Notes: a model not told the origin generated them from the letters alone. A stretch of DNA of 64,000 nucleotides from Candidatus Woesearchaeota archaeon (GCA_964366325.1 CAYITD010000005.1:8267-72266), one strand, 5' to 3'. Numbered from the stretch's first letter, positions 2,315-56,639 are shown. Made by a program: numbers and translations.

Positions 2315-2692
2315 TCATAGTTTACTAATGAAAGGATTGTACGCTCTTTTTCTTTCTTTATCAATTTCACTTTGTAATCTTGCTACCTCTTGCCTGTAAG
2401 TCTTGCCTTCATCAAAAGACACACTATCTATAACTTTTAGATTGACGTCTCTTTCAGCTTTTAACTTAATAACATTATTATAATGATATCCAAAATTAGA
2501 GCCATATAAAATTCCAAGAGATAAACCAGAAAAACCAAATAATATCACTCCTGAAATTAACATTTTCCTAAAACGCCCTTCTATTCTATCAAGAGACTGT
2601 TCATATTCTCTGTGATCTTGAAAGGCTCTATCAAGTGCGGTTTCTACTTCTCTACTTAAAACTTCAACGCCAACAGAGGAAACACCCATCAA
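2315..2692 (-). CDS. hypothetical membrane protein
   Basis: 125-aa ORF with one TM-like segment ISGVILFGFSGLSLGILYG. Confidence 0.35.
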   Translation of the reverse strand: MMGVSSVGVEVLSREVETALDRAFQDHREYEQSLDRIEGRFRKMLISGVILFGFSGLSLGILYGSNFGYHYNNVIKLKAERDVNLKVIDSVSFDEGKTYRQEVARLQSEIDKERKRAYNPFISKL

Positions 2693-2756: not shown

Positions 2757-2818
2757 AAAAAATAAAAATCCCAATCACAGCTTGCTGTGCGGTATTAACT
2801 CAGTTCGATCAATAAATT
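2757..2818 (+). repeat. intergenic hairpin repeat family, short form (copy A)
   Basis: A-tract, hairpin CACAG-CTTG-CTGTG (2776-2789), then GGTATTAACTCAGTTCGATCAATAAA shared with copies at 6.6, 43.2 and 46.3 kb. Confidence 0.7.
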
Positions 2819-2827
2819 AGATGAGTT

Positions 2828-3046
2828 TTATCCTTCTATACCTAATCTTATGATTGGCACACAGCCTTCAAAGATATCAGACAACATTTGATTTATGTTC
2901 CAAGACCATTGTGGCCAAGCAAGAGTACAGCCTGGATCAATTGAGCCAGGATTTCCTGAACCATCGCCGTTAGAACCGGCGAATACGCTTGAGATTGAAA
3001 CGCTCAGCATTAAAACCAATGCCACCAATAAAAATAACTTTTTCAT
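2828..3046 (-). CDS. small secreted protein (signal peptide)
   Basis: MKKLFLLVALVLMLSVSISSVFA signal-like N-terminus; 72 aa. Confidence 0.45.
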   Translation of the reverse strand: MKKLFLLVALVLMLSVSISSVFAGSNGDGSGNPGSIDPGCTLAWPQWSWNINQMLSDIFEGCVPIIRLGIEG

Positions 3047-3131
3047 TTTACCTCCTGTAAAATTTAGTTACTTTGAGCAGGTTTTTATTATATTTATACT
3101 TTTATGTGTTCTATTCTTCACAGCTTTTTAT

Positions 3132-3482
3132 CTAAGAATTGTATAAGCGCCTTGTTTGTTCTAAATTACGCAAAGCGTACTGTGAATGTTCTTTTTCTTC
3201 CCTAGGAAGAAAGCACCTAGCTATTTTTCTACTGTCATGACCTATATCTAAAAATCCTATGCTTGCTCCTCTTGCTAAGTCGCTTGGACTTAAACTTTTT
3301 TTATCAACATCAATTATCGTACCATCTCTTATAATGTATGTGAAACTTAAGCTTCCTGTAAGTCCACCTCTATGAGTTACGTATTGATCTAAGTTTAGGC
3401 CTTTTAAAAATCTTAAATTTTGCTCTGCTACTGTTTCACCAGTCCTGCTATCTACTTCTTCTAAATCTGTCTCTAAACGCAT
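3132..3482 (-). CDS. hypothetical protein (orphan)
   Basis: 116-aa ORF; TATA-like CTTATAAG about 25 nt upstream of ATG; no motif recognised. Confidence 0.4.
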   Translation of the reverse strand: MRLETDLEEVDSRTGETVAEQNLRFLKGLNLDQYVTHRGGLTGSLSFTYIIRDGTIIDVDKKSLSPSDLARGASIGFLDIGHDSRKIARCFLPREEKEHSQYALRNLEQTRRLYNS

Positions 3483-5347: not shown

Positions 5348-5434
5348 CTTGCCTCTTTTATATTTTATTAGAGCAAATGAATTATTTAAATCTGTTGAGT
5401 TCGCAAAATTTAAATTTTTATATATTTTACAAAA

Positions 5435-6235
5435 TTATTTTTTATCTTCTAGAATTTTGTAAACTGAAACTCGGTCTGGATACCAAATAAGAAACTCAAA
5501 ATCTCCTTGTTCATTCATCCTTGATAGTGGCATGCCTAAATGCCCAGATTTTACACGCCCTACAACCAAAGGGTTGTCTGGATCAAAGGTATTATCCTTA
5601 TGATTTAGAATATAATTTTGGTAGAGTGTTAGATAATCTTGATCTAGGTCTATACGTCCTGTTGAATTAGAGTAAAATACAATCTCGGCTGGATTTTCAC
5701 CTTTATCAACTATAGGCAGAGAGCCATATTCTTTAAAACTTGCTTTTCCAACTTCTACTAAATTAAAACTTGGGCTTCTAATTAGTTTATGCCATTTGGT
5801 TGGATGTCTTGTTTTATATTTTTCATCTCTTGTTTCATAAACTTGGCTAACCTTATTTTCCTTATGATTCCCTTTTTGGATATCGCTAAAAATACCTAAT
5901 GACCCAGCACCTATTAATATAAGTGCAATTAGACCTCCCAATAATCCTGAACCTTCTGAACTCCCAGCAGAACTACTAGATGAGAAAGTTATAGGGGAAC
6001 TTGAATCTTCACTATCATCGCTGGTTGATTGTCTAGAACTTTCGTTTTTTGTTTGCCTGTGATTTTCACCATAAGTATATCCTTTATCAAATAGAACATC
6101 ATAGTCTGTCATAAGAGATTTAATCTGAATGTCCTGAGCAATGTCTCTTCCAAAATTTCCTTCTAAGCCGGCCTTAACACCTGCCTCATAAATTTCATCA
6201 TTTCTTGTTTTTACCATTTTGATTATCCTACTCAA
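5435..6235 (-). CDS. hypothetical single-pass membrane protein with Ser-rich linker
   Basis: 266-aa ORF; SSSSSAGSSEGS linker followed by TM LLGGLIALILIGAGSLGIF. Confidence 0.4.
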   Translation of the reverse strand: MSRIIKMVKTRNDEIYEAGVKAGLEGNFGRDIAQDIQIKSLMTDYDVLFDKGYTYGENHRQTKNESSRQSTSDDSEDSSSPITFSSSSSAGSSEGSGLLGGLIALILIGAGSLGIFSDIQKGNHKENKVSQVYETRDEKYKTRHPTKWHKLIRSPSFNLVEVGKASFKEYGSLPIVDKGENPAEIVFYSNSTGRIDLDQDYLTLYQNYILNHKDNTFDPDNPLVVGRVKSGHLGMPLSRMNEQGDFEFLIWYPDRVSVYKILEDKK

Positions 6236-6365
6236 ACCTTTACAATTTGAATCCTACTTATCTGAACGCTGACGACAATACACGTGAAACTTGGTTTCCC
6301 GGCAACTTCCATTCTCACGAATGAAAGTGATTCTAACCTTACAGGTGAATCCTGTAAAACATGAA

Positions 6366-6448
6366 CGCCAAGGACAGGATTCGAACCTGTGCTCCCAGAG
6401 GGAATCGGTTTTCAAGACCGACGCTTTGGACCACTCAGCCACCTTGGC
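6366..6448 (-). tRNA. tRNA-Ser (UGA anticodon), long variable arm
   Basis: Minus-strand GCCAAGG..CCTTGGC acceptor, anticodon loop CTTGAAA, long variable arm, T-arm ACAGGTTCGAATCCTGT; TATA-like CTTTATAAG about 25-30 nt upstream. Confidence 0.9.
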
Positions 6449-6546
6449 ATATGGAACAAAATTAATAATGACTTATAAAGCTTTAGAATTTGCTATTTTA
6501 CTGACTGTTTGTTCTATTAATAAGATTACAAAAGTCTTTAGGGATT

Positions 6547-6795
6547 AAAAATAAAAATCCTAAACACAGCAAGCTGTGGGGCATTTTTAAGCCTCAAACT
6601 GAGACTGTCGAAACAAGCTGCAGAGTGTTAAACTCAGTTCGAACAATAAAGAAATTTCCTAAACCTTCGCTATCCCCACAGCAAGCTGATGGAGTATTAC
6701 GCTCGGTTTCTAGATGGAAATTTCTAATTGCCAAATTGACGGCACAGCTCTGCTGTGGTGTATTGAACCCAATTTGACAATAAAAAAATAAATTT
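6547..6795 (+). repeat. intergenic hairpin repeat family, composite four-module copy (copy B)
   Basis: Four hairpin+tail modules; 25-nt core ATTTTTAAGCCTCAAACTGAGACTG at 6583-6607; collinear with copies D/E (first half) and copy F (second half). Confidence 0.75.
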
Positions 6796-7078
6796 ATCCG
6801 AAAAGAGCACTAAGACCTGCCGCGCTTTCACTTGGCTTTTCTTCTTCTTTCTTCTCAACTTTCTTTGCGTCTGCTGGAGCAGCTGCAGGAGCTGAAGCCA
6901 TGATACTTGCGTTTTCAAGTTCTTTAGAGATATCAACACCGTGTAGACTTGCTACTAAAACTTTTATTTTAGATTCGTCTGGATGTGTTCCTGTTGCTGA
7001 GATAACTTTCTTTAGGCTGTCTTCATTTACAGGATGCCCTAACTTATGCAAAAGCAAAGCTGCGTATATATATTCCAT
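6794..7078 (-). CDS. rpl12: 50S ribosomal stalk protein P1 (L12)
   Basis: [11 protein letters not shown].. N-domain, Ala/Pro/Lys/Glu hinge, conserved tail AAGLSALFG. Confidence 0.95.
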
Positions 7079-7546
7079 TTATTTTGTCCTCCTTTCATCG
7101 TAATGGTGAACATAAAAGCGATTTGATAAAGCCTGACCTGTAGATGATGTTGCGTCCAATAGTTCAACCATTAGATGCGGGACAACTTGTAACCCTCTAT
7201 CTACTCTTAAACCTTGGGTTCTAAGCGTTGATTTAATTGCCTCATATCCACCACATAGCGTTCTATAAAATCTGTCCAACTCTCTTCGTGCTTGAAATAA
7301 GTCTCCTTTATCTGCTTGGCGTTGAATACTTTCAACTTGTCTGCTGAAATAGTCCATGTCCACACCAATTGCACTAAAATCTATTGCTAATCCAAGGTCT
7401 ATCATTTCACCCATTTGTTTTGGACTCAACTCATTGAAATGTCCATCCCTTATGTTTCTATCTAACGCTCTACTTCTTAATTCTAAAGTTTCTTCATCTA
7501 AATCTTGTTCTTCAACTTGAAGCATTTTCACTTCCTCCAGAGGCAT
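7079..7546 (-). CDS. hypothetical protein embedded in the stalk operon
   Basis: 155-aa ORF; its start overlaps the P0 3' end by 35 nt and its TAA abuts the P1 ATG (TAAATG); no motif recognised. Confidence 0.5.
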   Translation of the reverse strand: MPLEEVKMLQVEEQDLDEETLELRSRALDRNIRDGHFNELSPKQMGEMIDLGLAIDFSAIGVDMDYFSRQVESIQRQADKGDLFQARRELDRFYRTLCGGYEAIKSTLRTQGLRVDRGLQVVPHLMVELLDATSSTGQALSNRFYVHHYDERRTK

Positions 7547-8330
7547 TTATTTTACTCTCCAAGACCTTCTCATGCATCGATGCTTTGGAAATTAAAAATG
7601 AGATTGTTTCTTTTGTTGCATAACCTAGATGTATTGCGAAACCGAGAGATTTTGAAATTGAGTGTTTAAGTTCATCAAATACTCCTTTCTTATCTATCTT
7701 TATTTCTTCATAAACCATGTCAGATTTTGAATCGTAGGAAAATAATGGAATGAAACCGACTTTCATAGGATTTATTTTTAATTTACTCATGACGCTTGCT
7801 ACGTTCTCTTTTATTGCTTCACCTTTCTTTACTATAGTTGCACCAATTTTAACAGCTAATTTCCCTCCTTCAACCGCTACTTTCAAACCAACAGAGGATA
7901 ATTCTGAAATTGCTGGACCTGGAATCAACTCTGTAGGGCCAGATTCAACATTGATATCTTCAGGAGCAATATCTCCTGCTTTAGCTTTTGTAGAACTTTG
8001 ACTTTCCGTAAGCAATGCAGATAATTCGAAAGTGTCTATATCTGAGAATATTAAAGCGCAATCTGATTTAACTTTTTCCTTGAATTGCTGCAACATGCCT
8101 TTCTCTGATAAAGTTATTGCTCTTAAAAGAATTGATTTTTTAATTACCATAATATCAGCACGACCTCTTAAATCACTCTTAATTTTTTGAAACTGTGAAG
8201 CTGGAAGACCTTTTGTTGAAGCCACTAAAATAGTTCTGCTATGTTTTAACTTTTTTAATATTTCATCTACCTGCGCCTTTTTAAATTCTGGAACGGGCTT
8301 TATTCTTTCTTTTGGAGATTGTTTTTTCAT
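7512..8330 (-). CDS. rpl10: 50S ribosomal stalk protein P0 (L10), short form without C-terminal tail
   Basis: PEFKKAQVDEILKKL..ILVASTKGLPASQFQKIKSDLR typical P0 N-domain; ends ..INASGGSENASS. Confidence 0.9.
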   Translation of the reverse strand: MKKQSPKERIKPVPEFKKAQVDEILKKLKHSRTILVASTKGLPASQFQKIKSDLRGRADIMVIKKSILLRAITLSEKGMLQQFKEKVKSDCALIFSDIDTFELSALLTESQSSTKAKAGDIAPEDINVESGPTELIPGPAISELSSVGLKVAVEGGKLAVKIGATIVKKGEAIKENVASVMSKLKINPMKVGFIPLFSYDSKSDMVYEEIKIDKKGVFDELKHSISKSLGFAIHLGYATKETISFLISKASMHEKVLESKINASGGSENASS

Positions 8331-18511: not shown

Positions 18512-18560
18512 TTTTATACTTTTAATTATTTAATAAAGAGATTGCCTAAAAATTCTTTAT

Positions 18561-18606
18561 CCAAATCACACCAAGCTGCGAGGTATTTAACCCAAATAGT
18601 AATAAC
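18561..18606 (+). repeat. intergenic hairpin repeat family, short form (copy C)
   Basis: CACACCAAGCTGCGAG hairpin-like segment then GTATTTAACCCAAATAGTAATAA, matching module 4 of copy B (GTGTATTGAACCCAATTTGACAATAA). Confidence 0.55.
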
Positions 18607-18630
18607 TATACAATAGTTACACTATAGAAA

Positions 18631-40437: not shown

Positions 40438-40624
40438 CATAGCCTCGCCAGCTCACGAGATTGCAATCTCGGATCCTCTAACATTTAACATGTTTGGAGT
40501 GATTCAAACCTTCCAGGTTCGAAGAGATAGCCTCGCCAGTCTGAAGAAATCTAACAATTAATTTCTTGGCACTGTCGATGCTAATTTTATCTCGTTTCAC
40601 TCGATAATAACATAGCCTCGCCAG
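40438..40624. repeat. three direct copies of the tRNA-Gln 3' end (ATAGCCTCGCCAG), about 85-89 nt apart
   Basis: Identical 13-mer at 40439-40451, 40527-40539 and 40612-40624 (the last is the acceptor/T-stem end of tRNA-Gln); perfect 16-nt palindrome CGAGATTGCAATCTCG inside the first spacer. Confidence 0.75.
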
Positions 40625-40712
40625 GATTCGAACCTGGGTCATGGGAGTTCTCTTACAGCACTAAAGCACATTAACCAGAGTCCCATATCCTAGACCGCTA
40701 GACGACAAGGCT
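40613..40712 (-). tRNA. tRNA-Gln (CUG anticodon) with 27-nt intron at 37/38
   Basis: A1-U72 acceptor AGCCTTG/CGAGGCT, anticodon stem TGGGA/TCCCA, loop CTCTGG^..^C; intron at 40648-40674; 4-bp helix CTCT/AGAG flanked by 3-nt bulges; T-arm CCAGGTTCGAATCCTGG. Confidence 0.8.
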
Positions 40713-42911: not shown

Positions 42912-43165
42912 AGATAGGAATATTTATAGTTAAATTTGTTTTTATTGGCATGTTGTTCATAGTTAGTACGGAGAATCTTTATATGAAAAATGCTGAAGAT
43001 AGAGCAACTTTTGCTGGCCAGGTTTATAATTGGGTAGGGGAACTTTTCTCACACGTTTGGCAGATAACTGGTTTCGTTGTAAACTCTGAATGGTTGCCTA
43101 AAGATATGAATGAAAGTAAAAGCTCTTTTGAAGATAGTTTGAAAATTACAAGCAAACTATCTTGA
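42908..43165 (+). CDS. hypothetical membrane protein
   Basis: 85 aa, N-terminal TM. Confidence 0.35.
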   Translation: MKIGIFIVKFVFIGMLFIVSTENLYMKNAEDRATFAGQVYNWVGELFSHVWQITGFVVNSEWLPKDMNESKSSFEDSLKITSKLS

Positions 43166-43203
43166 TCGGAGTGATCTATAGATAATCCTGTTTTGCGTGA
43201 CAT

Positions 43204-43305
43204 AATAAAAATCCCAACCTCAGCAAGCTGTGGGGTATTTTTAAGCCTCAAACTGAGACTGATCGTGGAAGCTGCGGAGTATTAATTCAGTTCGAGCAAT
43301 CAACA
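43204..43305 (+). repeat. intergenic hairpin repeat family, two-module copy (copy D)
   Basis: AAAAATCCCAACCTCAGCAAGCTGTGGGGTATTTTT hairpin, 25-nt core at 43237-43261, then GTGGAAGCTGCGGAGTATTAATTCAGTTCGAGCAATCA. Confidence 0.8.
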
Positions 43306-43402
43306 GAATTGTCTATAACAAAGTTTTTTATATATGGAAAATGAACTTATTTTATGCCTCTATAGCTCAATGACACAAAATATATAAAGTTTCTAATTAT
43401 TT

Positions 43403-44425
43403 ATGCCTATGAGAGTAAAATTTAGAGAAGAAGTTGATCGAAAAAAGTTTTTTGAGTTGTTGAAAACTGGACTCAATAGTAACTGGAAGAATATAAGGAA
43501 AAAGTTTAATGTACCAAAATCTACCTTTGAAAAATACAAAAATGGTAAACTGCTTATTTCAGATGATTTATTTGAAAAATTATTAATTTATGTAGATGAA
43601 AATAAAAAAAAGTCTATAAAAGAAAGTATAGAAAATTTACCAGATAATTTCGGACAAATTAAGGGTGGTAAAAAAGCATATGTTATAAATTTTGAAAAAT
43701 TTAAGGAAGGTAGAAAAATAAGAAGTAAATCTGGAGAAAAATTAAATAAACAGTATAGAAATTTGTTTAAGGGCTTTGACTTAAAACCAGAGGTTTGTGA
43801 ACTAATTGGTGCTTTCATAGGCGATGGTTGTTTTAATGTTTATAAAAATAAAGTTTATCATATAGAGTTTTCTGGAAATTTTGGACTGGATATAGAATAT
43901 TATCAAGAAAGAATTATTCCGATAATTGAATCAATCATAGAATATATAAATCCACATATTTACAAACCGAAAACAAAAAATAATGCATTAAGAGTTGTAT
44001 TTTATTCCAAAAAACTTTTTTACTTCCTTAAAGAAATTGTTGGTTTTATTCCAGGAAAAAAGACATTCACTGTTGCAATACCTGAAAAAATTATGAATAA
44101 TGAAGAATTAATGAGATCTACAATAAGAGGAATATTTGACACAGACGGAACAATTTTCTTGGATAGAAGAAAAAGCTATAAAAAGCCATACCCTAGAATT
44201 TCTTTACAAACGGTAAGTAAGAACCTTTATGGGCAGTTAGAAAACTATCTGAGTGAAAAATTCAGTCTTTATACATACTTTAATGAAAAAAGGCATGTTT
44301 ATATAATAGAAATTTATGGTATCAATCAGCTGAGAAAGTGGATGTCTCTTATAGGTTTCTCGAATAAAAGACATCTTGATAAAGTTGCCCTAGTAGCTCA
44401 GTCGGTAAGAGCGCAACATTGGTAA
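43403..44425 (+). CDS. double-motif LAGLIDADG homing-endonuclease-like protein
   Basis: LIGAFIGDGCF and IRGIFDTDGTIF motifs; the ORF runs 39 nt into tRNA-Thr and stops at a TAA in its anticodon loop. Confidence 0.75.
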   Translation: MPMRVKFREEVDRKKFFELLKTGLNSNWKNIRKKFNVPKSTFEKYKNGKLLISDDLFEKLLIYVDENKKKSIKESIENLPDNFGQIKGGKKAYVINFEKFKEGRKIRSKSGEKLNKQYRNLFKGFDLKPEVCELIGAFIGDGCFNVYKNKVYHIEFSGNFGLDIEYYQERIIPIIESIIEYINPHIYKPKTKNNALRVVFYSKKLFYFLKEIVGFIPGKKTFTVAIPEKIMNNEELMRSTIRGIFDTDGTIFLDRRKSYKKPYPRISLQTVSKNLYGQLENYLSEKFSLYTYFNEKRHVYIIEIYGINQLRKWMSLIGFSNKRHLDKVALVAQSVRAQHW

Positions 44426-44460
44426 TGTTGAGGTCGGGGGTTCAAGTCCCCCCTGGGGCT
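44387..44460 (+). tRNA. tRNA-Thr (GGU anticodon)
   Basis: GCCCTAG/CTGGGGC acceptor, D-arm GCTCAGTCGGTAAGAGC, anticodon arm CAACA-TTGGTAA-TGTTG, T-arm GGGGGTTCAAGTCCCCC. Confidence 0.9.
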
Positions 44461-45239: not shown

Positions 45240-45443
45240 ATGGAACAAGAAGTGAAAATAAATGCTCATGAAATTATGTCAAAATTAGCAAGACTACAAT
45301 TAGATATAAATTATATAAAAGAACACATGGAAGATTTGGCTCTTTCTGAGGAAGACTTGGAAGCAGTTGAAGAATATGAAAAGGAAAAGAAATCTGGGAA
45401 ACTCATTTCCCATAAAGATCTTAAGAAAGAACTAAATTTATAA
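45240..45443 (+). CDS. putative antitoxin of the RelE-like toxin
   Basis: 67-aa acidic helical protein; its stop overlaps the toxin ATG by 1 nt. Confidence 0.45.
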   Translation: MEQEVKINAHEIMSKLARLQLDINYIKEHMEDLALSEEDLEAVEEYEKEKKSGKLISHKDLKKELNL

Positions 45444-45694
45444 TGCTAGAAGTAAAATATTCGAATCAAGCATCTAAATTTCTAAAGAAAATTTATAAGG
45501 AATTAGCAAACCGTATATTTGACGAAATAGAAGCGCTTCAGCAGAATCCTTTTCCACAAAACATGAAAAGAGTTGAAGGTAAGAAATTATTTAGAGTGAG
45601 AGTCGGAGATTATAGAATTCTTTACGAAATTGACAATCAGAACAATCTACTAGGCATAGTTAAAATAGACAAAAGAGAAAGAGTTTATGATTGA
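45443..45694 (+). CDS. relE: RelE/ParE-family toxin
   Basis: 83 aa; FRVRVGDYRILYEIDNQNNLLGIVKIDKRERVY typical RelE C-terminal pattern. Confidence 0.7.
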   Translation: MLEVKYSNQASKFLKKIYKELANRIFDEIEALQQNPFPQNMKRVEGKKLFRVRVGDYRILYEIDNQNNLLGIVKIDKRERVYD

Positions 45695-45807
45695 TTTATA
45701 TTCTTAGCGGAGACTTCAAACCTTAGCTATAGAGAACTTTGCAAAATTGCTAAGAGTTCTCTAACAAGAACATAAATTATTAAAAAGTGATTTGTCTAAA
45801 GCAGGAA

Positions 45808-46287
45808 ATGGCATTTGCAGATATTTGGACAGATTTGTTACATCCTTACACTTTCAGGGTACAGAGGAACGAGAGAGAAGTTTTTTACACTCCTTTAGAT
45901 AGCAAGTTGCGTATTCCTTCTGCTTCTTTTGCAAAACAAGGATTGTGTATTGGTTCCAAAAGGCCAAATGATAAGAGGGAGCTTGAGGATTATTGTCCTG
46001 TTAAGAGTTTTACAGAATGGCCAACTGTTGAAAGTCGAGGATTTATGACTGCGGATTTTTCCATTGGTAGAAGGATCAAAACATTGGAGGGATTATCTGC
46101 AAGAGCTCTTAGAGCCCCAACATTTTCTCATAAGATACTTCAATTAAGCAAGGAAGAGGTTGATCAATTTACCGAGCGAGCGTATGTAGATTTTGAAAAT
46201 AGGATCGCTGGACTTGGACTTCAAACAGAAAGAGATAAGATGTTCTTTAGATTCTACTTTGTAAGTCCAGATCATAGGCCAGATTGA
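45808..46287 (+). CDS. hypothetical protein (orphan, island gene)
   Basis: ORF from ATG 45808 (MAFADIW..); no motif recognised. Confidence 0.35.
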   Translation: MAFADIWTDLLHPYTFRVQRNEREVFYTPLDSKLRIPSASFAKQGLCIGSKRPNDKRELEDYCPVKSFTEWPTVESRGFMTADFSIGRRIKTLEGLSARALRAPTFSHKILQLSKEEVDQFTERAYVDFENRIAGLGLQTERDKMFFRFYFVSPDHRPD

Positions 46288-46388
46288 TAAAAATACCCTA
46301 CAGCTGCTGTGTTTGGTATTTTTAAGCCTCAAACTGAGACTGATTGTGGCAAGTTGCGAAGTATTAACTCAGTTCGAGCGATAAAATA
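46288..46388 (+). repeat. intergenic hairpin repeat family, two-module copy (copy E)
   Basis: AAAAATACC..CTACAGCTGCTGTG..GGTATTTTT long hairpin, 25-nt core at 46318-46342, then GTGGCAAGTTGCGAAGTATTAACTCAGTTCGAGCGATAAA. Confidence 0.8.
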
Positions 46389-46465: not shown

Positions 46466-47431
46466 ATGGGAAAAGAGAGGGTGATAAGTCCTAAATTTAG
46501 AGAAGTGCCTACTGGACCTGTAGAAAGCAGAGGAGATGCCGCACAGCGTCGCTTTGTCGCTGGGGGAAATACATCACATCTTTACTCACATGTTTACAAA
46601 TCTATTTTTGGAGGTAGAGTTGCTCAACTTGACAACGGTTATACTACTGTCAGTATGCCTTGGGATGAAACTAGATATTTTAGACCTGATATTGTTAAGG
46701 ACACAAAAAATGGTAAAAAATATACTGAAATTAAGGCTGTTTCAACGCGAACTTCACAACCACACTGTTCTATTCCACAATTTGAAGATTATGCCTTCTT
46801 TTTGCTGTATGGTTTAGCAATAGGAGACTCTTCTCCTTCTGTAGACTACGCCCTTTTTCGCTACGGAGACAGAAACCTTACAGGTCAACACAGTCTTAGT
46901 AATGACTCACTTGCTTCAAAACTGGCTAATGAAACTAGAGACTTAGTAGTTCTCCCTTCTAATTTGGCTATGTTTTTATTTTTAAATATGAGACAGAAAA
47001 TTTACAATCAAAGTTCTTCTGCTAGCACTATAAATCAGAGAGCTTATTGGGATGTTCGCTCATCTGATTTAAATTTGCTTCATAATCACTCGCCTCTGGA
47101 TGCAATAGAAAAGATTATGGCTCACAGTCTAAATATGACTCAAACTACTAGGAGAAATAAAAATGCTATGATAGATAATTTATTTTTAGACAGACTTTCT
47201 GTAGAGAGAAAAAAATCGCCAGAAATTTCACTTGGTAGGAAACAAAGATTGAAAACTTTCCCTATAACTAGGTATAAGCTATCAGCAAGAGATCAAAAAG
47301 AATGGAACGACCATTTTCTTAGAGAACATGAAAGAATCTTAGGATCTTTGGGAGTTAGGGACTTATATGCTGAAATTGGAGAAGAAGTTGAACAAGTTGA
47401 TTTTAATGGGTGCGGGGAAGTGCCTTTCTAA
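46466..47431 (+). CDS. hypothetical protein with PD-(D/E)xK nuclease-like motif
   Basis: YFRPDIVKDTKNGKKYTEIKAVS fits a (P)D ... E-x-K core; the remaining 200 aa are unassigned. Confidence 0.3.
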   Translation: MGKERVISPKFREVPTGPVESRGDAAQRRFVAGGNTSHLYSHVYKSIFGGRVAQLDNGYTTVSMPWDETRYFRPDIVKDTKNGKKYTEIKAVSTRTSQPHCSIPQFEDYAFFLLYGLAIGDSSPSVDYALFRYGDRNLTGQHSLSNDSLASKLANETRDLVVLPSNLAMFLFLNMRQKIYNQSSSASTINQRAYWDVRSSDLNLLHNHSPLDAIEKIMAHSLNMTQTTRRNKNAMIDNLFLDRLSVERKKSPEISLGRKQRLKTFPITRYKLSARDQKEWNDHFLREHERILGSLGVRDLYAEIGEEVEQVDFNGCGEVPF

Positions 47432-55947: not shown

Positions 55948-56256
55948 TTAGAATAAATCAACAAAGGTTCTGCAGAAACGTTCTTTTGCTATTTTTAGAC
56001 CTTTAGTGCCTTCAGCAGTTAAAGAATAATAAATTGATTTTCCTTCTTTCTTTTCTTTTATTAAACCGGCTTCTTTTAATGATTTTAAAGCAGGGTAAAC
56101 GGTTCCAGGGCTTGGTTTCTCTCCTTTTCTCTTTTCAATCTCTTTCGCAAGGTCTTGCCCAGACATTTCTTTTTTTGAAACAAGGAATAAAATAAGGAAA
56201 GAGAGAAAACCGCGCATATCACAGCAATAACTATCTGGACATTTTTCTTTTGACAT
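55948..56256 (-). CDS. padR: PadR-family transcriptional regulator
   Basis: LSFLILFLVSKKEMSGQDLAKEIE..PSPGTVYPALKSLKEAGLI..YYSLTAEG. Confidence 0.8.
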   Translation of the reverse strand: MSKEKCPDSYCCDMRGFLSFLILFLVSKKEMSGQDLAKEIEKRKGEKPSPGTVYPALKSLKEAGLIKEKKEGKSIYYSLTAEGTKGLKIAKERFCRTFVDLF

Positions 56257-56328: not shown

Positions 56329-56457
56329 GAAATTTCCTGAAAATCTCTATGTAAACCGCAGCAAGTTGTTGGATATTTTGCGATTTTCCAATGCGGAAAT
56401 TTCTAATTACCATTTGGCCGATGCAAACATCGGAGTGTTAAGCTCAAATGGCAATGA
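56329..56457 (+). repeat. intergenic hairpin repeat family, copy F (collinear with modules 3-4 of copy B)
   Basis: Shared GAAATTTCCT (56329-56338), GGAAATTTCTAATT (56395-56408), hairpin CCGATG-CAAA-CATCGG, tail AGTGTTAAGCTCAAATGGCAATGAAAG. Confidence 0.65.
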
Positions 56458-56639
56458 AAGGAGGTGGATGTAAAATGGAGTGTTATGGATATTCTGGAGG
56501 AAGCTGTGGCTCTGGTCGAACAATGAGAGGTTTTCTTACAAAGGAAGAAAAGATACAAATGTTAAAAGATTACAAGGAAAGCCTTGATAAAGAGTCTAAA
56601 GGAGTAGGGGAGAGAATTTCTGAGATTGAAGATGAGTAA
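56448..56639 (+). CDS. small Gly/Cys-rich N-terminus plus coiled-coil protein
   Basis: 63-aa ORF; alternative ATG 56475 is preceded by AAGGAGG; architecture reminiscent of DUF5320-type proteins, weak call. Confidence 0.35.
   Translation: MAMKGGGCKMECYGYSGGSCGSGRTMRGFLTKEEKIQMLKDYKESLDKESKGVGERISEIEDE

Follow-up and report, generated by a model that had tools for sequence, protein, structure and literature searches.

What are the short, hairpin-bearing repeats that lie between genes in a 64,000-nt stretch of a Candidatus Woesearchaeota genome (GCA_964366325.1, CAYITD010000005.1:8267-72266; hereafter the window)? A sequence-only reading had placed related elements at six loci (2757-2818, 6547-6795, 18561-18606, 43204-43305, 46288-46388 and 56329-56457), all on the + strand, had likened one part of them to a bidirectional terminator, and had named as candidates a structured small RNA, a REP/MITE-like mobile element and a site bound by a protein. 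We conclude, with a probability of roughly 0.7, that the repeats are non-autonomous miniature elements of the kind known as palindrome-associated transposable elements (PATEs), derivatives of IS200/IS605 transposons that keep only the two ends. The gene content of the window is archaeal (aEF1A, ribosomal P1 and P0, FtsZ), its GC content is 33%, one of its tRNA genes has a 30-nt intron, and its genes are split about evenly between both strands. The host is a DPANN archaeon (Woesearchaeota/Nanoarchaeota-like) from Hainich groundwater.

All six loci are present and read the same way. A covariance model built from 22 copies of the main element type (type I, below) and scanned against the window returned the same loci and none other, on the + strand: strongly at 6547-6652, 43201-43305 and 46283-46387 (E 1e-19 to 1e-22), at 2758-2818 with E 2e-4, and weakly at 6710-6786, 18549-18608 and 56333-56460 (E 0.25-5.6). 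Minus-strand matches of the model fell on the palindromic hairpin 1 only. Exact matches to the conserved 25-mer ATTTTTAAGCCTCAAACTGAGACTG number three, all of them + strand (6583, 43237 and 46318), against none in 100 shuffles, and matches to the tail of the second module were found at 2792, 43279 and 46361. Searching for the hairpin followed by GYRTT gave five family sites on the + strand (2776, 6565, 6743, 43263 and 56418), none on the minus strand, and three matches outside the family (8584, 44444 and 4171). The locus at 56329-56457 is counted in the family because it is similar to 6651-6778, a second element type. The short forms had been described as hairpin-tail fusions, which is correct for 2761-2810; the other, 18560-18599, is degenerate and the weakest member. 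A k-mer census of the window was too noisy in this AT-rich DNA.

The family extends well beyond the window. Related and metagenomic contigs compared with it are numbered here L002, L006, L010 and so on. Scanning metagenomes with a 20-mer returned 26 loci, 25 of them from 0.1-um-filtered Hainich groundwater, which yielded 22 distinct repeat copies, several of them on one contig and one strand. With more than 20 further copies on related contigs, the repeats are not confined to the window. Among genome contigs, a scan for the repeat core gave four matches, at least one of them a true relative, a Woesearchaeota metagenome-assembled genome (L002, CAYHPN010000022). The match from a first scan of viral contigs was due to chance. 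Thus, the family is multi-copy across several related DPANN genomes, at about one locus per 10 kb (~100 copies per Mb). Orientation is uniform, with 6/6 window loci on one strand and 4/4 and 3/3 on two other contigs.

The architecture can be read directly from the copies. Type I, which comprises modules 1 and 2 of the sequence-only reading, has a modal length of 96 nt (range 72-100 nt). Its 5' half runs AATAAAA, ATCCCAAn, hairpin CACAGCAAGCTGTG, GGGTATTTTT, AAGC, CTCAAACTGAG and ACTGrtC, and its 3' half hairpin GCAGCAAGCTGC, GGAGTATTGAA, CTCAGTTCGAG and C, followed by AATAAA. The pairing of CTCAAACTGAG with CTCAGTTCGAG at 10 of 11 positions, noted from the sequence alone, is correct. Type II (modules 3 and 4, ~125 nt) follows the same logic with different arms. 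Both types carry a GC-rich hairpin at each end (CRCAGC-WW/TCT-GCTGYG), and both are too short for a transposase gene. Near the two ends sit similar hairpins in direct orientation (in type I, hairpin 1 is CACAGCAAGCTGTG and hairpin 2 CGCAGCAAGCTGCG; type II has equivalents). Terminal inverted repeats were not found: neither end (AATAAAAATCCC... and ...CTCAGTTCGAGC) is the reverse complement of the other, and all inverted repeats detected are internal stems. Variation is modular. Some copies (window 46286, L012 and L021) carry the 36-nt module of hairpin 1 in inverted form, hairpin 2 is missing from the short forms in L021, L023 and L025, a terminal-only form like that at 2761-2810 recurs at L025:377-438, and tandems of type I followed by type II occur in the window (6550-6778) and in L022.

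Filled and empty versions of the same site were observed directly in two cases. The first is in L024, where an ORF (open reading frame) of 260 aa from the AbiEii family includes a complete copy of 96 nt, in frame. The other 119 homologues listed (56-79% identity) are 189-247 aa long, mostly 226-230, and in each of the seven aligned with the L024 protein precisely the 32-residue block NKNPNHSTLWGIFKPQTETGRSKLRSIGLSSS is missing. In the DNA, GGATAT is joined to CGAAAAGAG at the empty sites, and the filled site reads GGGTAT joined to AATAAAAATCCC, continuing to TTCGAGC and then AATAAAGAG. The second case is provided by L023 and L025, whose flanks are essentially identical, over ~800 nt on one side. 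Of the two, only L023 has the short-form copy, which is 75 nt long, in frame, and adds 25 aa to its protein; L025 has GAGAAAAAG joined to AATAAAAC at this place. The elements are mobile, as these two independent insertions show, and the mobile-element candidate is supported by the insertion polymorphism that the sequence-only reading had suggested looking for, and by the link to IS200 transposons described below. For the window copies themselves, same-strain contigs are identical to the window. No orthologous locus came from the flanking protein 46466-47431, whose homologues were itself and one at 40%, or from ribosomal P0, which had no relative above 70% identity.

The junctions are asymmetric. 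On the left, AATAAAA is constant (19/22 copies); on the right, 20 scored copies gave 10 AATAAA, 5 AGTGAA-like, 2 GATAAA, 1 AATCAA, 1 AATAAG and 1 CAGAAA. The empty sites have one AATAAA(A) in L025 and CGAAAA in L034/L036, and the filled sites have AATAAA(A) on both sides. A constant left box with a variable ARTRAA right box favours an element-borne end plus a target, rather than a duplication, as judged from sequence. Right boxes such as AGTGAA, which mismatch the constant left AATAAAA, make a target-site duplication less probable; the apparent duplication of AATAAA at both junctions would arise because the element's own end mimics its target.

The ends of the repeats also resemble those of IS200 transposons, a link likewise seen directly in the sequences. 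A Pfam survey of 107 ORFs from related loci found a single Y1_Tnp protein (L022:11881-12312, 143 aa, with HUH and Tyr motifs). With 121.5 bits, this TnpA clears the cut-off (55) of the IS200/IS605 transposase equivalog model, and the model for the transposases associated with repetitive extragenic palindromes (REPs), RAYT, gave no match to it at E 0.001. Its gene shares its stretch of DNA with three element copies, and the metagenome scaffold concerned (Hain-H43 number 79) has more on its other record. The hairpin CGCAGCTTGCTGCG lies ~36 nt upstream of the L022 tnpA start codon, and CGCAGCTCTGCTACG 19 nt past its stop. In 204 kb searched with a hairpin pattern, the matches were the family copies and the left end of the L022 IS200 only. 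Against the anti-canonical strand of a type-II copy, this left end aligned at 28/32 positions (0/300 shuffles as good), and against type I it showed 19/20 identity (no shuffle as good).

Viral contigs scanned with a degenerate hairpin pattern supplied an independent, intact IS200 in L045, whose TnpA, likewise an IS200 equivalog, is 43% identical to that of L022. This IS200 carries the same 14-nt hairpin at each end; its left end has the flank GGGTTTAATTCCC and, 21 nt 5' of the foot of the hairpin, a TTTAAT box, and its right end reads ...GGGTAGTTCATT. The L022 and L045 elements have in common the hairpin, its 5' flank GGGTTTAATNCCC and, at 21-23 nt upstream, a TTTAAT box. In alignment, both left ends are colinear with the minus strand of six miniature copies, in the order TTTATT/TTTAAT/TTCATT box, ~8 nt, (G)GGTTTAATACCC, hairpin. 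We take the minus strand as the transposon top strand because of the left-end alignments, the L045 IS200 and this colinearity. The + strand had been considered for this role and was rejected, since the case for it rested on an 8-nt match to GAGCAGTG that was not significant (127/500 shuffles). As a separate observation, the hairpin TACCCCGCAGCWWGCTGCGGGG(TA) recurs in viral contigs L044, L045, L046, L048, L049 and L051, with GC contents of 35-64%. It flanks the intact IS200 at L045:2852-3472, and at L046:5078-5141 it forms a PATE-like stretch of two hairpins that ends ...GGGGATTTTTATT. The hairpin seems to be the hallmark of a widespread subgroup of IS200.

From these sequences we infer a course of TnpA catalysis, exact cleavage points and a cause of the uniform strand. 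A Y1 (HUH) TnpA of the IS200 type, encoded elsewhere in the genome, would move the elements in trans, recognizing the hairpins on the single-stranded top strand, which would be the minus strand in the window. One cut would follow the TTYAYT box ~21-22 nt 5' of the left-end hairpin, and another would follow TTTTATT, a sequence of the element itself ~15 nt 3' of the hairpin at the right end. The excised strand would then be pasted 3' of another TTYAYT (ARTRAA on the + strand). On this top strand a type-I element would begin, after the target TTYAYT, with GCTCGAACTGAGTTCAATACTC and hairpin 2, and would end with TTAAAAATACCC, hairpin 1 and ATTGGGATTTTTATT; the junction of a transposon circle would join ...ATTGGGATTTTTATT to GCTCGAACTGAG... 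on the minus strand. As an element would end in its own target, new copies could land directly behind old ones, which would account for the tandems of type I followed by type II. Short terminal-only forms would derive from recombination between the two hairpins, and the uniform strand may reflect lagging-strand template bias or selection. In the orientation facing upstream genes, the hairpin with T5 probably also ends transcription, as a side effect or exaptation rather than the origin of the element.

Several observations weigh against this account. There is no transposase gene in the window, and the scan covered the window and related contigs rather than the whole genome. The similarity between the L022 IS and the miniature elements is confined to ~30 nt around the left-end hairpin, is weak at the right end, and comes from an IS whose ends are unmapped. 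In L022, the tnpA-sense strand of the IS and the top strand inferred for the miniature copies at that locus are opposite ones, which a simple lagging-strand rule would not lead one to expect. Counts of G-T versus A-C mismatches are mixed as to the folding strand, stem 2 favouring the minus and hairpin 2 the plus strand. Both filled sites are flanked by AATAAA(A), which is compatible with a true target duplication of 6-7 bp, and a duplication would also suit copy C and L028 (GATAAA on both sides) and copy D (ATGAA on both sides; copies are lettered as in Table 1). The short form that differs between L023 and L025 is without hairpin 2, and its hairpin 1 is degenerate. Finally, the strong co-orientation of copies with upstream genes (~12 to 0) is only partly explained.

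On related contigs, copies between co-directional genes are always co-oriented with them (~12 to 0). In 10/20 independent copies, a co-oriented ORF of 50 codons or more ends at the element start or up to 10 nt upstream of it (in 3/20 the stop codon is the element's own TAA, and in 7 more it lies at most 10 nt upstream); in 17/22 copies one ends within ~46 nt. The claim that orientation is kept regardless of the direction of flanking genes was therefore overstated. Copies B and C lie behind co-oriented genes, and the composite at 6547-6795 alone runs counter to the genes on either side of it, those for tRNA-Ser and P1. Other copies lie between divergent genes (window 2761 and 56329, L006 and L022). 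Both a replication-strand bias like that of IS200/IS605 elements and selection for landing harmlessly at stop codons may be at work.

Could the repeats instead be dedicated cis-acting elements of gene 3' ends, with hairpin 1 and U5 plus the upstream A-tract as a bidirectional terminator or mRNA stabilizer, stem 2 as accessory RNA structure, and similarity among many genes maintained by selection? Archaeal transcription terminates at oligo-U tracts, the stop codon distances are as such elements would have them, and a scan with a consensus terminator flags 43217-43236 with ATTTTTAAGC and 43263-43277, so the terminator resemblance noted for module 1 is real as a pattern. A GC-rich hairpin with a T-tract does lie 3' of co-oriented genes. 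However, several copies break this rule of location, and termination is not their primary nature because copies also lie within ORFs and between divergent genes. The anti-oriented composite, the near-identical copies at unrelated loci and in different genomes, presence that varies between near-identical strains, and covariation no higher than in shuffles also speak against an origin as 3'-end elements, which we consider unlikely; the evidence fits a terminator as a secondary effect of a mobile element. Genes for small structured RNAs (sRNAs, or C/D or H/ACA guide RNAs transcribed from one strand) are far less probable still. The recurrent nested stem-hairpin units with conserved GUAUU, folding z-scores of about -3 to -4 for some copies, and stem-2 mismatches that become G-U on the minus strand (21 versus 2 cells) are what such genes might show, but 18 of these 21 G-U cells come from one inherited position. 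Cells that pair make up 89% of the type-I alignment, the A-C mismatch that recurs in stem 2 goes back to one inherited position, and all measures of covariation equal those of shuffles, there being no usable covariation because the copies are too similar. Rfam at gathering thresholds returned tRNAs only, and permissive scans of 6500-6850 and 43150-43360 gave sub-threshold chance matches only; the structured-RNA candidate thus found no backing in either covariation or Rfam. Nor do ~100 copies per Mb in a genome of ~1 Mb, some of them within ORFs, resemble RNA genes. C/D-box and H/ACA guide RNAs and K-turns were rejected on direct reading, their boxes and geometry being absent, as were integron attC sites, template/variable repeats of diversity-generating retroelements and archaeal introns of the bulge-helix-bulge type, whose motifs and pairing do not fit. 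Likewise, TTTTTAAG was discarded as a TATA box, as transcription would begin within stem 2.

Mobility by another enzyme is a little less probable than the 3'-end explanation. The candidates are REP/REPIN sequences with a RAYT, a MITE (miniature inverted-repeat transposable element) with terminal inverted repeats and a DDE transposase, or cargo of an IS110-family element such as that near the L002 copy. REPs are likewise hairpins with a conserved short flank, and the AATAAA(A) flanks of both filled sites could be a target duplication. In L002, positions 58-753 hold a fragment of an IS110-family RNA-guided (bridge-RNA) transposase, 1.7 kb upstream of the element copy, but no similarity of the IS110 flanks to the element was seen. 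A MITE of this type does not match repeats that have no terminal inverted repeats and a junction that is constant on the left and variable on the right, a pattern unlike duplication. REP/RAYT does not match either: the hairpins are direct rather than inverted, the conserved flank is AATAC and not GTAG, and the sole Y1 protein found is an IS200 equivalog. The least probable explanation is a polar protein-binding site for chromosome organization or replication. Uniform orientation (6/6, 4/4 and 3/3) is consistent with such a site. Elements that are 96-125 nt long and modular, vary in presence between near-identical strains, occur within ORFs and largely follow the orientation of neighbouring genes are not, and we know of no candidate protein that would bind them.

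The preferred identification as IS200-derived miniature elements places the repeats beside the PATEs known from haloarchaea, among them Haloquadratum walsbyi (Dyall-Smith et al., 2011, PMC3119063). PATEs lack inverted terminal repeats and target duplications, have near-terminal palindromes related to those of IS605-type transposons and an end-to-palindrome distance that is longer at the 5' than at the 3' end, and give rise to terminal-only forms of ~52 bp by deletion between the two palindromes (PMC3119063). The window elements share with them the absence of terminal inverted repeats, similar near-terminal palindromes, a length too short for a transposase gene, strain-specific insertions, terminal-only versions of ~50 nt, and the longer 5' distance (21-22 versus ~15 nt on the top strand). 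Unlike PATEs, they occur in a DPANN host of 33% GC and another phylum; the comparison is one of architecture. They also come as two modular types in tandem, have an end that mimics the target, with AATAAA at both junctions, cluster at stop codons in sense orientation, lie in some cases in frame within ORFs, and are linked to a transposon that carries tnpA only (IS200 group), without an IS1341-type tnpB. The statement that no described family matches the repeats accordingly holds for the sequence family, for which Rfam has no match. It does not hold for the kind of element, which is already known. A limited literature search found no description of the sequence family, its DPANN host range, the two-type tandems or the in-frame insertions.

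IS200/IS605 elements insert 3' of a target of 4-5 nt, carry a guide sequence 5' of the hairpin foot, and are biased in orientation toward the lagging-strand template (PMC5027513). IS608, ISDra2 and IS200 have subterminal hairpins recognized on one strand, and they insert at a short specific target without duplicating it. The window elements likewise have subterminal hairpins, which would be recognized on one strand, and a one-strand bias, their junctions are more probably those of insertion at a target than of duplication, and they share the hairpin and left flank with the IS200 elements of L022 and L045. A conserved AATACYC lies just 5' of the hairpin feet, where IS608 has its guide sequences. 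Unlike these transposons, the window copies are non-coding, and their left and right cleavage boxes appear identical (TTTATT), as opposed to TTAC and TCAA in IS608. REP/BIME sequences and the BOX elements of pneumococcus are similar in being intergenic, hairpin-forming, modular or mosaic, and often situated just 3' of genes. Both can influence termination or mRNA stability. REPs, which are linked to a Y1 HUH transposase (RAYT rather than IS200 TnpA), are single palindromes of 20-40 nt with a 5' GTAG and occur in inverted pairs; for BOX elements, we know of no transposase.

In behaviour only, the elements also recall the palindromic elements of Rickettsia (RPE; Ogata et al., 2000), which reportedly insert in frame into genes as well as between them and add a hydrophilic peptide. 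The in-frame palindromic repeats in AbiEii (L024) and in the L023 protein are of this sort, in an archaeal host. In the 96-nt consensus, two sense frames and one antisense frame are open, which is mildly unusual (p ~0.03-0.05 by shuffling). RPE are bacterial, and to our knowledge have no link to a transposase; the archaeal family has two proven insertions within ORFs. Copies in frame with the N-termini of downstream genes (L002, L020, L026 and L030) were not counted as evidence, because two of the three frames are open anyway. It is conceivable, though we hold it doubtful, that the element has been shaped so that it does no harm, or even helps, at whatever site it enters, and forms an archaeal counterpart of RPE with a known transposase link. 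Landing on a stop codon, its own end would copy the ARTRAA target and so restore a TAA stop. Landing within a gene, its two open sense frames and 96-nt master length would add a hydrophilic loop and leave the protein unbroken. Its hairpin and U5 would provide a terminator.

Table 1. Elements of the repeat family in the window and their parts (positions counted from the first letter of the window).
Feature	Position	Strand	Description
Copy A, type I	6550-6644	+	115.7 bits; left member of a head-to-tail tandem
AATAAA box	6645-6650		Between copy A and the type-II copy
Type-II element (modules 3 and 4)	6651-6778	+	First half: outer stem GAAATTTCC/GGAAATTTC enclosing hairpin CCACAGCAAGCTGATGG plus AGTATT, then TAATTGCC; second half: arm CAAATTG, hairpin CACAGCTCTGCTGTG plus GTGTATT, arm CAATTTG; 3' of it, AATAAAAAAAT, then the stop codon of the minus-strand gene for ribosomal P1
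Copy B, type I	43204-43297	+	Covariance model 111.9 bits, E 6e-22; left box AATAAAA; hairpin 1 within stem TAAAAATCCC/GGTATTTTTA, then the 25-mer; stem 2 CTCAAACTGA/TCAGTTCGAG around hairpin 2 (43263-43277); end ...TTCGAGC
Right (target-side) box of copy B	43298-43303		AATCAA
Outer palindrome, third repeat type	43177-43317		Arms 43177-43192 TATAGATAATCCTGTT and 43302-43317 AACAGAATTGTCTATA; copy B nested inside
Copy C, type I	46286-46379	+	98.2 bits; begins at the TGA stop of ORF 45787-46287; hairpin-1 module inverted relative to most copies; GATAAA(A) on both flanks
Copy D, type II	56329-56452	+	Between a divergent PadR gene (55948-56256, minus) and downstream + genes; ATGAA on both flanks; module-4 hairpin swapped for CCGATGCAAACATCGG, with matching arms CCATTTG/CAAATGG
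Copy E, terminal-only (core-deleted) type I	2761-2810	+	E 2e-4; left end and hairpin 1 joined straight to post-hairpin-2 tail GGTATTAACTCAGTTCGATC, then AATAAA; between ORFs 2315-2692 (minus) and 2895-3146 (plus)
Remnant F, degenerate, terminal-only-like	18560-18599	+	Hairpin CACACCAAGCTGCGAG plus GTATTTAACCCAAATAG; E 1.7; weakest member

Other observations concern the surroundings of the copies. The nesting of a type-I copy in a third palindromic repeat, with arms like TATAGAYAATTCTGTT and AACAGAATTGTCTATA, is repeated in L027, whose coding flanks have no similarity to window proteins, and related arms lie near copies in L017, L002 and L010. Between copies B and C lie a 340-aa ORF with a LAGLIDADG_3 domain (43403-44425), which overlaps tRNA-Thr (44387-44460) by 39 nt, and a ParE-toxin gene (45443-45694). 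Directly 3' of copy D, at 56460-56520, a strong GGAGGT Shine-Dalgarno-like site precedes a small ORF beginning MECYGYSGGSCGSG..., which encodes a Cys/Gly-rich peptide. The region 40438-40712 holds the intron-containing tRNA gene (40613-40712, minus, 30-nt intron) and two further direct copies of its 3' end CTGGCGAGGCTAT, ~87 nt apart (~40526-40538 and ~40438-40450), which look like stacked attachment-site remnants of past integrations into the tRNA 3' end. Adjoining tRNA-Ser (6365-6449, minus), ~950 nt at 5399-6348, including ORF 5435-6235, are replaced in sister contig L018 by ~830 non-aligning nt, with identities of 99.9% and ~90% on either side; this is a strain-variable islet abutting a tRNA gene. 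The same-strain contigs L037 and L038 (window 6349-7896) end soon past the composite 6547-6795, L038 inside tRNA-Ser and L037 ~200 nt beyond it, and the repeats or the adjacent islet may break the assemblies there.

A census of MITEs counted a woesearchaeal genome among the MITE-richest of archaea, with 105 MITEs per Mb that were left uncharacterized (PMC11602168). The family described here is a concrete, well-bounded case tied to IS200-type transposases, and its elements can occupy in-frame positions within archaeal proteins. Because DPANN genomes are very small and streamlined, selfish DNA that recurs about every 10 kb is a notable load. For annotation, the family is a caution against labelling such loci as sRNAs or terminators, and the repeats may account for assembly breaks at particular spots in these organisms. 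The shared hairpin and TTYAYT box are a directly testable substrate for a small HUH transposase. If the elements are indeed shaped to land harmlessly, then at ~100 copies per Mb they would be a significant contributor to the evolution of proteins and gene 3' ends in ultra-small DPANN genomes.

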